Source of the DNA: Eledone cirrhosa
Taxonomy: Eukaryota
Direction of reading: 5' to 3'
NCBI GenBank assembly: GCA_964016885.1
Contig: OZ024756.1
Coordinates: 22,506,001-22,570,000, forward strand
DNA: 64,000 nt
Position 1 is the stretch's first letter, and every line of letters starts with the position of its first letter. The translations under genes were made by a program, and so were the position numbers. Shown in pieces: positions 9,066 to 54,528 of this stretch. Under the pieces are notes generated by a model. That model was not told the DNA's origin. It searched no databases and saw nothing but the letters and a program-made list of their open reading frames with translations.

Positions 9066-9347
9066 ACACATGTTAGGTAATTCCGAAGAAAAAGCAAAGG
9101 AAAAAAGAGTGCTCTATGTATAAAACAGAGCTATTTAATTAGAAAGTGAACAACAGAATATATAACTACTCCATTACCAAAGGTTTCTGGGTCCCAGACA
9201 ATATTAATATATGTCTCGATCGTTCATCAGACAAAGATGTTACCTCTGTCTGATGAACGATCAAGACGTATATTGATATTGTCTGGGATCCAGAAACCTT
9301 TGGTAATGGAGTAGTTATATGTTCTGTTGTTCACTTTCTAATTAAAT
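9066..9347. mobile_element. Fold-back element P4 with two hammerheads (9169-9236 minus, 9244-9311 plus)
   Basis: ctctgt-CTGATGA-acgatcaagac...gtctgggatcca-GAAA-cc(ttt)gg-TA-atggag. Inverted arms at about 9133-9233 and 9247-9347. Confidence 0.75.
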
Positions 9348-9356
9348 ATATATATA

Positions 9357-9530
9357 GAGATGAGATTCTACAGGACTAGAACTGTTTCATTCTTTAGAAA
9401 TCATCAGGAATGAAACAGTTCTAGTCCTGTAGAATCTCATCTATATTAAAACTTTTATACTCTGCTATGTATTGAGTACCTTATTTACTGTGGTTACCTC
9501 TCATTCAACCCGGAATAACTTACCTTATTT
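9357..9530. mobile_element. Second P1 copy (fold-back, hammerhead on minus strand 9363-9411)
   Basis: Same sequence as 4954-5285 in the opposite orientation with a different fold-back point. A diverged P1 tail also lies at about 8998-9065. Confidence 0.7.
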
Positions 9531-9813
9531 ATATATATATATATATATATATATATATATATATATATATATATATATATATATATATATATATATATAT
9601 TTATACATGCATACACACATATCTAATGTCGGCTGAAAATTTCTTAGACTGACTATGAAAGATTGATGTTAGAACTGTGAAATCTTGCAGTTATTGATTT
9701 CAATTATTCTTATTAATACTTGCATTGTTTCTTTCAGGGTCAATGTTGAAAAATAAACCTCATTTGATCATTCCATGAGAGTATCTTTGTCGCCTTTATA
9801 TATATATATATAT

Positions 9814-10390
9814 ATTTTTAAAATTTTCTTATTTTACGACTTTTATATATTTGTTCTGCATCCTCCTGCATTGAACCACCTAGGTACTATGACATAACTT
9901 ATGTATTTGCTAGTATTAGTGTACATCTGTACGCATATGTTCGTAAATATACTAATTCTCTATATTTATCTCCAAATTATTTATTTGTTGTGCAAACCTG
10001 CCAAATCCACTACTAACTTATTGTAGTGGTAGTAGGCTTTGTCATTTCACTAGCCCCACTCCTTCCGACTAGCCTCAGTGTCACGTGATTGATTCTTTAG
10101 AATCTGCCATTTGACCAGAAGCAGTGAACTTTTTCAGTGCTTTGGAATTCAGTCCTCGCTAGCTGTTCCATCCACCGAATTATTATTATTTTTATATGAG
10201 CCCCTAGTGTCCGCGCATTGCTTGGAGACTTAGCTGAGAATAGACTCCCTGAGGACGTAATGAATTCTCGACAGTTACATTACATAACTATCTTTATCCC
10301 ATTACAGAAACTAATTAGTTGGAGTGAAAATTTTAGTAAGTAAGTTAATTTTTAATTTTTAAAATTTTCTTATTTTACGTCTTTCATATA
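9814..10390 (+). mobile_element. TA-flanked hammerhead element P5 with a terminal direct repeat (period about 541 bp)
   Basis: atttttaaaattttcttattttacg occurs at both 9814 and 10355. Contains hammerhead 10244-10325. Confidence 0.65.
10244..10325 (+). ncRNA. Type I hammerhead ribozyme (family P5)
   Basis: actcc-CTGAGGA-cgtaatg...cattaca-GAAA-ct(aatt)ag-TT-ggagt. Palindromic stem-loop III. Stems covary with the 63413-63493 copy. Confidence 0.8.
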
Positions 10391-10429
10391 TATATATATA
10401 TATATATATATATATATATATATATATAT

Positions 10430-51951: not shown

Positions 51952-52890
51952 TGTACGTCTTTCCTTATGTGGGTGGATTTTAGCTGAAAGAATAGAAGAC
52001 AAACAGATTGAAGAAGATAGAAAGAAGGTGAGTCAGAGGAAATAATTGAAGGACTAAGAAAGAATAATTATTTAATACACCCTAAAGTATAAGAGGTTAG
52101 CAAATCTCGAAAGGAAACATTGTTTCCTTGGTCCGATATGACAAAAGTTTACAATCTAATCTAATCTGGCGGAGTTTAAACTCGCAAATAAGAAGAACCA
52201 GGCCCGCCCCTAGGAGCATTGGATTTTGTGTACTTCATATTTGTTTCGGTTGCTGAATACAATCAGGGGTCACTGCTTCTCCTGAAGATCAATAGTTCTC
52301 TTCTAACGTCTAGCGCGTTTGCATTGTCAATTTGCATTGATCCTCTGCAAAGCCGCATTGTTCTCAGAACCACTACACCAGTCTTTCGATGCGTACAGCT
52401 GGAACTACTGCCACCCATTGCTTTGGCTTTGGGAGGATCGCAACTCATTTCTACAACTAAGTAAACTGGAGCAACGTGAAATAATGTGACTTGCTCAAGG
52501 ACACAAAACATCACCCAGTCCGAAAATTGAACTCACAACCTTTCGATTGCACTAACCGCTAAGCCATGCGCCTTCATCAAATATAGATACCTGATAAAAA
52601 TCATATATATTTCCCTCATATGTATCCTTCACAAATCATGAATACATTTCGAATAGGATACTAATATATAAATATATATAAATATATAGCTGTACGTCTT
52701 TGCTTATGTGGGCGGATGTTAGCCGAAAGAATAGAAGACAAATTGAAAAAGACAGAAAGACGGTGAGTGAGAGGAAATAATTGAGAGGCTAAGAAAGAAT
52801 AATTATTTAATACACCCTAAAGTATAAGCGGTTAACAATTCTCCAAAGGAAATATTGTTTCCTTGGTCCGATTTGACAAAAAATTACAAT
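51952..52890. repeat. Dispersed duplication of about 200 bp (51952-52155 and 52691-52890)
   Basis: Near-identical segments. The 3' part (ggaaacattgtttccttggtccgat...gac) also occurs at about 4518-4560 and, inverted, at about 53480-53530. Confidence 0.75.
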
Positions 52891-53120
52891 ATAGATACCT
52901 GATAAAAATCATATATATTGGATGTGGAGCTCCAGTGAGGGAATCGATCTATATTTCAAATTTTTGTTCAATTAAAATATGATACTGCAACGTACTATGT
53001 ATTCTTACATTCTATACAGATTGTCTCTTGTTAAAGTTTGATATGTTCTATTATACACTCAAATCATTAGATATTTATGTATGTATATATGTCATTCACT
53101 ATTTTGTAATGATAACGAGA

Positions 53121-53310
53121 GGGCGGTTAATTGGCAGTATCGGTAGAGGGTCGGACGCCATGCTTTCCAGCATAGTTACGCCCCTTTACGGTCTGAGTTC
53201 GAATCCCGTCGAGGTTAACGTTGCCTTTCATCCTTACGGGGTCGATAAAATAAAGTACCAGTAATGCACTGGATAATTGCTGGCCTTGTGCCAAAAGTTG
53301 AAAGAACTAT
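53121..53310 (+). mobile_element. SINE A
   Basis: Full-length match to the consensus. Confidence 0.85.
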
Positions 53311-54237
53311 TTCGTAATGATATATATATATATATATCATAGATTGAGTTAGAAACTCAAAAGAGTCTTTTACAATTAAATAGCTCAAGGAAGGGAATCG
53401 GTCCGAGCCGTGTAATACAATTGAATATATCAGTGGGATGAACACCGATACTAGTATACATGTGTTCGAATTATAGACAGTCGATCAACTTTCGTCAAAT
53501 CGGAGCAAGGAAACAATGTTTCCGTTGGTCTTGCTAATATTTTCTATTATATGTCGGTCAAGGAACCGAACTCATAACCTCACGATTGCGACGAATACAA
53601 TTCTCTAACCATTCAGCCATATATATATATATACATGCATATATATATACATACATACATACATATATATATATACATACATACATGCATACATACATAT
53701 ACATATATACATATATATATATATATATATATATATATACATACATACATACATATATACATACATACATATATATATACATAGATACATACATATATAC
53801 ATACATACATATATATACATACATACATACATACATACATAGATACATATATATATATATATATATATATATATATACATATATATACATACATAAATAT
53901 ACATACAAACAGGGTGGCTGCCAACTCGTTTTCGAGTACGGCCACTACTTTATATCCATGTAGGAGAACCCTTACCGATCCGCCGAACGAGTGTGACATT
54001 TTAGTCCAGCCAGCGACTTGAAAACTCTGGTACAAACACTACACTTGTGACAATTATTGACACATAGTGCTGGGCCCATGGTACCATGTGACGACAAGTG
54101 CAGAGAGATCTCCAGATATAAAGCAGTGCCTGTGCCGTGAAGCTTTTATAGTGAGCAAAGGCACATACAAACATACATACATACATACATACATACATAC
54201 ATACATACATACATACATATATATATATATATATATA

Positions 54238-54528
54238 TAATATAAGATCAAAAGATGGTTAAAGGAGTTCATGTTGATTTAAAACTGCACTATCAACAAG
54301 TGTTTTTTTAGCCTTCATATCATGTTCTCCTGTTTTATCTGATGAAAACACAAATATTATTGCTTGATGATGTTTGTTTTTGAAATGCGCATAATAAAAT
54401 ACATGGAACTCCTTTAACCATCTTTTGATCTTATATTATGCATACTCCAGTCCCACAAACTGTAGAGTGCTTCTTATCCGATATCTGCATTGCTTTATTG
54501 TACTACAATAAAACTCACCTCCTACATT
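54238..54528. mobile_element. Family P6 fold-back element with hammerhead on plus strand 54331-54401
   Basis: tgttttat-CTGATGA-aaacacaaatattat...atgatgtttgttttt-GAAA-tgcgca-TA-ataaaata. Inverted arms at about 54238-54270 and 54406-54439. Confidence 0.8.

Follow-up and report, generated by a model that had tools for sequence, protein, structure and literature searches.

Why do the tails of several fold-back insertions in a stretch of Eledone cirrhosa DNA (64,000 nucleotides, hereafter the window) carry the same small hairpin? A preliminary description had noticed an ACTC...GAGT(A/G)C hairpin in five families, P1, P2, P3, P4 and P6, and a possible further case. We found all six at the places given, including the G-C outer pair of P4 (GCTC..GAGC, read on the minus strand, 9111-9131), although the RCTC..GAGY element itself is shorter than the ranges first listed, which include two letters past it. 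The hairpin is confirmed as a conserved bulged stem that is more specific than first noted: RCUC, a variable upper stem that opens Y..R, a 2-nt UN bulge, and GAGY. The upper stem, the 2-nt bulge, and a second copy of the motif had been missed. The stems and insertions in the window are as follows, with cut sites that are putative and were placed by analogy with File S2 of Craig et al. 2021 (PMC8557442).

9459-9477, plus strand: P1 stem 1, ACTC / TGC-loop-GTA / TT bulge / GAGT
9354-9529 (end approximate), plus strand: P1 fold-back insertion, 3' end of a Hydra-type Penelope-like retroelement (PLE); inverted arm 9354-9407 with a hammerhead core on the minus strand, direct arm from 9408, putative cut after 9431, (TA)n flanks on both sides
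10932-10955, plus strand: P2 stem 1, ACTC / TACT-loop-AGTA / TT / GAGT
10802-11003 (end approximate), plus strand: P2 fold-back insertion, arms 10802-10863 and 10865-10926, putative cut after 10906
15561-15580, plus strand: P3 stem 1, ACTC / CAA-loop-TTG / TT / GAGT
15273-15645 (end approximate), plus strand: P3 fold-back insertion, arms 15273-15382 and 15442-15551, hammerhead core 15454-15460, putative cut after 15503
9111-9131, minus strand: P4 stem 1, GCTC / TGT-loop-ACA / TA / GAGC
9070-9348, minus strand: P4 fold-back insertion, arms 9132-9233 and 9247-9348, hammerhead core 9224-9230, putative cut at 9175
54444-54468, plus strand: P6 stem 1, ACTC / CAGT-loop-ACTG / TA / GAGT
54237-54527 (end approximate), plus strand: P6 fold-back insertion, arms 54237-54270 and 54406-54439, hammerhead core 54339-54345, putative cut after 54393
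10713-10748, plus strand: stem 1 of a sixth family (the possible further case), ACTC / CGT-20 nt-ACG / TT / GAGT, in the tail of a fold-back with arms 10430-10463 and 10671-10704
9005-9024, plus strand: stem 1 of an older P1-like copy, TAC/GTA upper stem
4997-5015, minus strand: stem 1 of a second P1 copy
5363-5386, minus strand: stem 1 of a P2 copy
5587-5607, minus strand: stem 1 of a P3-like copy, core only
3849-3868, minus strand: stem 1 of a P3-like copy, TC bulge
11541-11574, plus strand: stem of another family, GCTC / TGTAA..TTACA / TT / GAGC
15722-15745, minus strand: stem 1 of a P2 copy
19406-19451, plus strand: stem 1 of family C4, long loop
26418-26442, plus strand: stem 1 of a P6 copy
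53383-53408, minus strand: stem of another family, GCTC / GGA..TCC / TT / GAGC
55342-55365, plus strand: stem 1 of a P2 copy
59878-59901, plus strand: stem 1 of a P2 copy, TC bulge

Near 9070 the tail of P4 directly adjoins that of a P1-like copy.

A count in 264 kb gave 38 strict matches to the motif, compared with 2.15 +/- 1.15 (maximum 4) in 20 dinucleotide shuffles. A (TA)4 follows within 25-85 nt after 33 of the 38, as opposed to 282 of 2288 background GAGY sites; copies are not independent in these counts, and family-level tests agree with the excess over chance. Arbitrary stretches of the genome (880 kb, a sample tilted to small chromosomes) contain 88 strict matches. P1 stem 1 matches the covariance model with 21.7 bits, the model having been built with the P1 row included. 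On their own the stems fold weakly (z from -0.01 to -2.8); in only three of seven window cases does the minimum-energy fold have the proposed register. Rfam returned no match at E <= 0.5 in five loci carrying the motif and nothing relevant for the whole window among the matches listed (150 of 339), all of which are below the gathering score and driven by repeats or palindromes; it likewise listed no hammerhead in these window matches or in the five carrier loci. No published description of the hairpin was found in the literature searched.

Judged from their sequences, the carriers are 5'-truncated fold-back copies of Hydra-clade PLEs in (TA)n, an assignment made from protein motifs and by-eye likeness to File S7 of Craig et al. 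2021 (PMC8557442). The families had been taken as unrelated; P1, P2, and P6 instead trace to Hydra-type ORFs, as does P3 at one locus (L108), where such an ORF lies upstream, so that the traceable families are diverged members of one PLE clade and the motif is most simply inherited. A CxCX5C linker is present in the ORFs of an 830-aa family, P6, P2, P1, L108 (P3-linked), L085 (C4-linked), and L166. RWR and DKT occur at the N-terminus in the 830-aa family and P2, and an in-frame RWR could be read from the P1 DNA. Carrier ORFs have CxxC and CxH around a conserved E and N and, by eye, lack CCHH, and PF01541 (the GIY-YIG Pfam) gave no match in them; no endonuclease match was found for P4 in 25 loci with 1.5-kb flanks. 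One carrier family combines an 813-aa ORF, intact in a tandem array at C1:183.737-183.760 Mb, with a 3' UTR near 4 kb. The (TA)n target, the inverted 5'-truncated copy, the one-sided tail (about 60-140 nt here), and tandem arrays were all seen in carriers. A fold search with a predicted Hydra protein yielded just the weak resemblance to telomerase that was already known, with TERT structures as best matches (E 8e-9, TM-scores of 0.28-0.37).

Other owners of the motif were considered and rejected. Families with a CX2-5CxxC linker or Pfam GIY-YIG ORFs, the mark of Neptune-, Poseidon-, or Nematis-like PLEs, have motif-less tails, and none of nine copies has a core within 2 kb after the ORF. Neptune-type GIY-YIG elements, at first taken as the owners, were dismissed. 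A MITE or Helitron reading fails since each fold-back has its own centre and long copies continue into RT ORFs. One motif-like match, which follows family C3 in L102, turned out to mark a junction with another family, and covariance-model matches in non-Hydra loci were nested Hydra fragments where checked, apart from one (L084:9591) that was left unassigned on reading.

In full elements the motif lies in the 5' leader between hammerhead and start codon and is usually present twice (stem 1 and stem 2), with distances of about 16-117 nt from the two copies to the ORF start. The hammerhead core and stems are readable in P1, P3, P4, and P6, and longer P2 copies combine a hammerhead with a U3-A8 core variant and a Hydra-type ORF, cleavage being predicted from sequence. 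From the putative cut to the motif the distance is 25 nt in P2, 27 in P1, 43 in P4, 50 in P6, and 57 in P3. This spacing is variable, and the motif keeps its position relative to the insertion ends rather than to the hammerhead.

The ends of inserted copies concentrate at two sites, 6-9 nt on the 5' side of either stem 1 (site 1) or stem 2 (site 2). Among 360 TA-ended copies of six families (103 matches without a TA junction were set aside), the modes before stem 1 are -6 (P1), -8 (P2), -7/-9 (P3), -3/-6 (P4), -7/-12 (P6), and -7 (830-aa family), and a second mode precedes stem 2 by 6 nt in P2 and by 9 nt in the 830-aa family; these ends were read from old insertions and are ambiguous by 0-5 nt of microhomology with (TA)n. 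Ends within the first 25 nt of stem 1 are rare (eight of the 360), and families with a stem 1 of 19 nt and of about 82 nt keep the same offset. A/T makes up 78% of the 10 nt before a stem, and TA is found there in 92% of cases. The second stem was read directly after site 2 in P2, the 830-aa family, P6 (272 pattern matches, start codon also read), and C4. In P1 it is a variant, a 4-bp GCAC/GTGC hairpin with a 5-nt loop 9 nt past site 2, and site 2 is used as often as site 1 despite this noncanonical form. Pattern searches gave no matches for a P4 second stem or for the P3 continuation. Ordinary insertions contain no copy of stem 2, which shows up in tandem or read-through copies alone; the discovery of stem 2 replaced our first model, in which one hairpin lay between ends at -7 and about +45.

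The two sites are used in a paired manner. After 42 fold-backs with an unclassified end were set aside, 95 of 101 have one end at each site, five have both at site 1, and one has both at site 2; independent ends would give 50 of 101 (chi-square p 6e-19). Assembly loss of symmetric fold-backs could have inflated this excess.

The motif extends beyond this genome. We selected 76 metagenome loci by protein homology, representing 61 families. Their Hydra-family leaders contain the strict motif in 23 of 42 cases, with 0.13 in shuffles, and two or more relaxed cores in 25. The relaxed core is present in 36 of the 42 leaders, compared with none of the nine non-Hydra 3' regions noted above. Several of the six leaders without a core resemble flanking DNA. 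By reading, 12 of 17 informative metagenome junctions fall 0-4 nt before a stem, microhomology included, and five do not fit. In two published consensuses, from a coral (Hydra-2_Amil) and a sea cucumber (Hydra-2_Ajap), the motif was seen by eye in exact form close to the 3' end. A variant is present in the published Hydra-1_Crog, and the match in Hydra-1_Amil is weak.

Covariation and positional enrichment, proposed earlier as checks, were both found, the enrichment being relative to insertion ends. The three upper pairs form in 57, 38, and 41 of 65 instances that had been selected by their lower stem only, above the permutation means of 43, 26, and 25 and maxima of 52, 37, and 37 (10,000 permutations, with relatedness and two copies per family uncorrected). 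The first upper pair is C-G in 38 and U-A in 21 of 63 rows. Three lower-stem pairs are invariant across rows and so uninformative on pairing. Chance or shared ancestry with no function would suit a short, weakly folding motif whose carriers all belong to one clade, yet core and pairing persist across the 61 metagenome families, this genome, and the coral and sea-cucumber elements, while the flanking leader is unalignable between families, and the metagenome set has no match on the reverse strand or in any of 12 ORF windows; we regard this explanation as highly improbable. Covariation, restriction to the clade within the set of elements tested, and the fixed distance to insertion ends all speak for the cis-element first proposed, as a probable RT-binding or priming-position signal. 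It is not a plain 3'-end signal, given its place in the 5' leader of full elements.

We propose that the stems are probably a docking site on the element RNA, which would set each RT start 6-9 nt to the 5' side. Alternatively, they might act in DNA, as single-stranded cDNA or as a cruciform in a tandem intermediate, and form a GIY-YIG endonuclease site that is cut 6-9 nt upstream in AT-rich sequence, so that ends and tail come from resolution and not from RT starts. Craig et al. 2021 ascribe the tail to endonuclease-mediated resolution (PMC8557442), the D. virilis Penelope endonuclease requires tail sequence in DNA (summarised in PMC11167929), and the nearly invariant lower stem is what a sequence-read site would be expected to show. 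The covarying, sequence-free upper pairs and loops of up to about 100 nt instead point to a folded single strand, cDNA of ordinary insertions lacks stem 2, and in the Anolis element PAc the two tail bounds coincide with RT starts measured in vitro on RNA (PMC11167929). Upper-stem G-U and A-C counts (11 vs 8) do not decide between RNA and DNA. Overall, action in DNA seems unlikely.

A role mainly as translational or packaging operators in the 5' leader, bound by the element protein or a host factor and needed once hammerhead cleavage leaves an uncapped RNA, would agree with the closeness of both stems to the ORF start. RT would then start at the first accessible AU-rich stretch nearby, and the AT-rich, TA-containing 10 nt before the stems favour priming by (TA)n ends anyway. 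By itself, this role accounts neither for one end per site in 95 of 101 insertions nor for the sharp end modes, and we think it doubtful as the main function; it is compatible with the docking-site explanation.

How PLEs select two internal starts and why the tail is one-sided are open questions in the literature (PMC8557442, PMC11167929). In the docking-site explanation that we consider probable, a tandem or read-through transcript would supply pLTR and leader, and both stems of a single RNA would be bound by the RT-endonuclease, which is probably dimeric, as PAc is predicted to be. The endonuclease would cut both (TA)n strands, each 3' end would anneal through 1-5 nt to AU-rich sequence on the 5' side of a stem, and both RTs would copy toward the RNA 5' end. 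A cDNA started before stem 2 would take in the tail (stem 1 plus spacer), one started before stem 1 would not, and head-to-head joining of these two 5'-truncated cDNAs would give a fold-back with a one-sided tail. One RT of the dimer per stem on the same RNA would explain the one-sided PLE tail. We give an even chance to a twin-aptamer RNA, in which two stems would dock two RT-endonuclease subunits (a dimer) on one RNA and prime both cut strands at once, each 6-9 nt 5' of its own stem. If true, this is a distinct double-ended, internally primed retrotransposition that accounts for both tail and fold-back. The fixed distance of a short, clade-wide RNA motif to both ends makes start-site choice testable by point mutation and compensatory rescue, and the motif can serve as a diagnostic marker for fragments of the Hydra clade, which this genome contains at high density.

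The elements share with the published Hydra clade of C-terminal EN+ PLEs a single ORF with RW(K/R), DKT, the CxCX5C linker, CxxC, and CxH, as well as a pLTR hammerhead, (TA)n targets, an inverted 5'-truncated copy, and a tail at one end; they differ in tail length, which is 30-40 bp there (PMC8557442). That work describes no tail or leader stem-loop ("hairpin" does not occur in the main text, nor "hairpin" or "stem-loop" in the supplement). For the Poseidon-clade PAc, Frangieh et al. 2024 (PMC11167929) describe an "AC-rich stem loop" and two internal RT starts between which the tail lies; cleavage and extension involve both target strands, RNA 3' of the starts is required, and a dimer is predicted. 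Apart from the stem loop, our proposed model shares these features. By eye, the PAc template printed there has no such motif, so the signal is not PLE-wide.

The 3' stem-loops of stringent LINEs and SINEs, such as eel UnaL2 (PMC1636434), are also small conserved stems with a bulge or internal loop that are recognised for retrotransposition. They are located on the 5' side of the RT start, and each is copied a single time, at the RNA 3' end. The Hydra stem, by contrast, is present in two copies; it would lie 3' of the start proposed for it and be left uncopied by that RT. In telomerase RNA, with its anchor elements, and in HBV epsilon, structured RNA beyond the copied stretch positions the RT on an internal template. 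The likeness of the Hydra stems to these is one of analogy; if the twin-aptamer reading is true, they would represent a telomerase-like anchor beyond the copied template and a portable signal of about 25 nt for PLE RT start choice. They also have a bearing on how telomerase-like RTs acquired anchored internal templates.

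Short fold-backs are numerous in the (TA)n tracts of the window, G000:C17:22506001-22570000 of an animal assembly that totals 3.0 Gb; each consists of an inverted and a direct arm plus a tail at one side. On re-reading the sequence, five hairpins (one in each of the fold-back families P1, P2, P3, P4, and P6) and one extra case all lie where the preliminary description placed them. The ACTC...GAGT hairpin that it reported is present, and its definition is now tighter: RCTC pairs with GAGY in a lower stem of 4 bp, the 3' side has a bulge of 2 nt with T as its first letter, and the letters of the upper stem vary by family (TGC/GTA, TACT/AGTA, CAA/TTG, CAGT/ACTG, TGT/ACA, and CGT/ACG). 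In the window and 20 further 10-kb stretches, this strict motif occurs 38 times versus 2.15 in shuffles, and (TA)n comes after it in 33 of the 38; these copies are non-independent, so family-level tests are reported below. A short match to a relaxed core (one upper pair required) at window 57699-57715, plus strand, has (TA)n 51 nt further on and G/C-richer surroundings. Fragments of Penelope-like elements (PLEs) frequently insert beside or within each other in shared (TA)n tracts; the tails of P4 and of an older P1-like copy abut at window 8945-9131.

Upstream of long P1 copies lie a microsatellite-rich 3' UTR and then an RT-endonuclease ORF, and links to such an upstream ORF were found in five loci for P2, three for P6, and one for P3; for P4, a link was sought and none was obtained. 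The ORFs linked to P1, P2, P3, and P6 have a CxCX5C linker and CxxC and CxH motifs, and RWR and DKT were found in carrier ORFs wherever the N-terminus was reached. The CxCX5C linker and the CxxC, CxH, RWR-type, and DKT motifs mark the Hydra clade of PLEs (Craig et al. 2021, PMC8557442), and, judged by sequence, the carrier ORF features are those given for that clade. One intact family has an ORF of 813 aa from Met (830 aa stop to stop) and forms tandem arrays with a period of 6.7 kb, in which the order is ORF, long UTR, hammerhead, stem 1, stem 2 (two copies of the bulged hairpin), and start codon. This Hydra-type family (G000:C1:183735001-183762000) is very young, with many intact ORFs, at least 150 near-identical endonuclease matches, a disordered insert of ~100 aa after the RT, a microsatellite-rich 3' UTR of ~4 kb, and a very long stem II in its hammerhead.

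Other repeats and ribozymes were observed alongside. An abundant SINE-like repeat, often in inverted pairs (window 10520-10671, 11019-11190, 38857-39142, and 40753-41244), presumably resembles octopus SINEs. An ORF scan found an uninterrupted 1437-aa LTR-retrotransposon-type ORF (L174:1612-5922, minus-strand count), and a canonical-looking hammerhead core (CTGATGA, paired stem II, GAAAC) lies outside the five families at window 62510-62555, minus strand. P1 also occurs as a head-to-tail non-coding unit of ~211 bp (G000:C3:36232101-36232560), ordered hammerhead, stem 1, leader up to the ATG, and then pLTR again, which resembles a non-LTR retrozyme; similar spacings of ~190-200 bp occur at C4:279.229 Mb and C9:23.835 Mb. 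The hammerhead of P2 (L215:9155-9420; window 10865-10926) is complete and of type I; a palindromic loop closes its 5-bp stem III, and its core has U3-A8 instead of C3-G8, the same variant as reported by Cervera and de la Pena 2014 (PMC4209133).

The motif is real and clade-wide. A metagenome scan with a 40-protein alignment, in which selection was by protein alone, gave 76 loci in 61 families; in 42 of these families, the sequence 5' of the ORF is 140 nt or longer. The strict motif is present within the 150 nt preceding the ORF in 23 of the 42, whereas the reverse strand and each of 12 ORF windows have 0 and shuffles give 0.13. The relaxed core occurs in 36/42 (once in 11, twice in 24, and three times in 1; 7 single matches on the reverse strand), with stem copies lying roughly 70-117 and 16-52 nt 5' of the ORF. 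File S7 of Craig 2021 contains six Hydra consensuses; compared by eye, Hydra-2_Amil from coral and Hydra-2_Ajap from sea cucumber have the exact motif close to the 3' end, Hydra-1_Crog has a variant form, the match in Hydra-1_Amil is weak, and the remaining two end before any tail. In a motif-blind catalogue of 243 tailed fold-backs in 47 clusters, the core lies near the arm end in 18 clusters; traceable motif-less clusters belong to ORFs with a CX2-5CxxC linker or to a Poseidon-like ORF. In 9/9 copies with such ORFs, a scan that mostly covered the 3' side of the ORF found no core in the 2 kb there. The same fold-back-plus-tail structure, with the motif absent, occurs in PLEs of Neptune-, Poseidon-, or Nematis-like type, which make up at least seven families (L081-L100, L173).

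Pairing is conserved in the metagenome leaders. In 65 instances selected solely by their lower stem, each of the three upper pairs forms more often (57, 38, and 41 times) than in any of 10,000 permutations; the first bulge letter is U in 59, and AC directly follows the stem (GAGC then AC, often ACTC) in 54. A 63-row alignment (one row misaligned) has C-G in 38 and U-A in 21 at the first upper pair, G-C in 57 and A-U in 5 at the outer pair, three invariant pairs, and a covariation score of 0.256 versus 0.105 +/- 0.010, a statistic that ignores relatedness. Isolated stems fold weakly; of 7 window cases, 3 have the proposed register as their minimum-energy fold. The 5' half of stem 1 could also pair with the 3' half of stem 2 in the metagenome leaders L324-L397, as a possible alternative fold or switch.

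Insertion ends were mapped in 360 TA-ended copies of six families; 103 matches without a TA junction were set aside, and P1 loci obtained by tail query were left out. In 192 copies, the end lies within 16 nt before stem 1, in 131 at a second site, and in only 8 within the first 25 nt of stem 1. We dropped a reading in which both ends flank one hairpin, as a second canonical stem was found beyond the tail, shortly before the start codon, in P2, P6, the 830-aa family, and a further carrier family, C4. P1 is the exception, with a 4-bp GCAC/GTGC hairpin that lacks the bulged core 9 nt beyond its second end; the second-stem reading covers these five families. Modes mostly fall 6-9 nt before a stem (-3/-6 in P4 and -7/-12 in P6), with 0-5 nt of microhomology to (TA)n, and the offset holds whatever the loop length. 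Contig ends and tandem read-throughs were discarded and one apparent duplicate was merged, leaving 17 informative metagenome junctions; by our reading, 12 of these fall 0-4 nt 5' of one of the two stems, microhomology included. Both ends could be classified in 101 fold-backs (42 set aside), and 95 of these have one end at each site, versus 50 expected under independent choice.

We infer that each stem is a docking site for one RT. The one PLE examined in vitro is PAc, a Poseidon-clade protein from Anolis and a predicted dimer; it cleaves both target strands and extends each of them, and its two internal start sites, which form the boundaries of the tail, require RNA on their 3' side (PMC11167929). 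In Hydra elements, one RT would dock per stem, by putative RNA-level binding, and begin copying immediately 5' of that stem, where the cut (TA)n end would be paired with an AU-rich stretch; with a pair of RTs on a single RNA, one cDNA would carry the tail and the other would lack it, the two being joined head to head. Such an arrangement would explain why the ends keep a fixed offset, why they are asymmetric, and why ordinary copies lack stem 2. Rival readings are that the endonuclease recognises the stems at the DNA level and that the stems have a translational or packaging role.

No description of the motif was found in the available parts of the literature searched, which included Craig 2021, PMC4209133, bioRxiv 10.64898/2026.07.22.740005, PMC13282606, and PMC7229834, with subscription papers, Repbase reports, and figures outside that search. 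The element class is already known. What appears to be undescribed in print is the twin bulged stem, together with its link to the two insertion ends. The predicted structure of a Hydra-type protein (pLDDT 83) has telomerase structures as its best, weak, fold matches, and this likeness of the model reflects a relationship that is already known and says nothing about the stem. As known systems for comparison, telomerase RNA and HBV epsilon are analogies.
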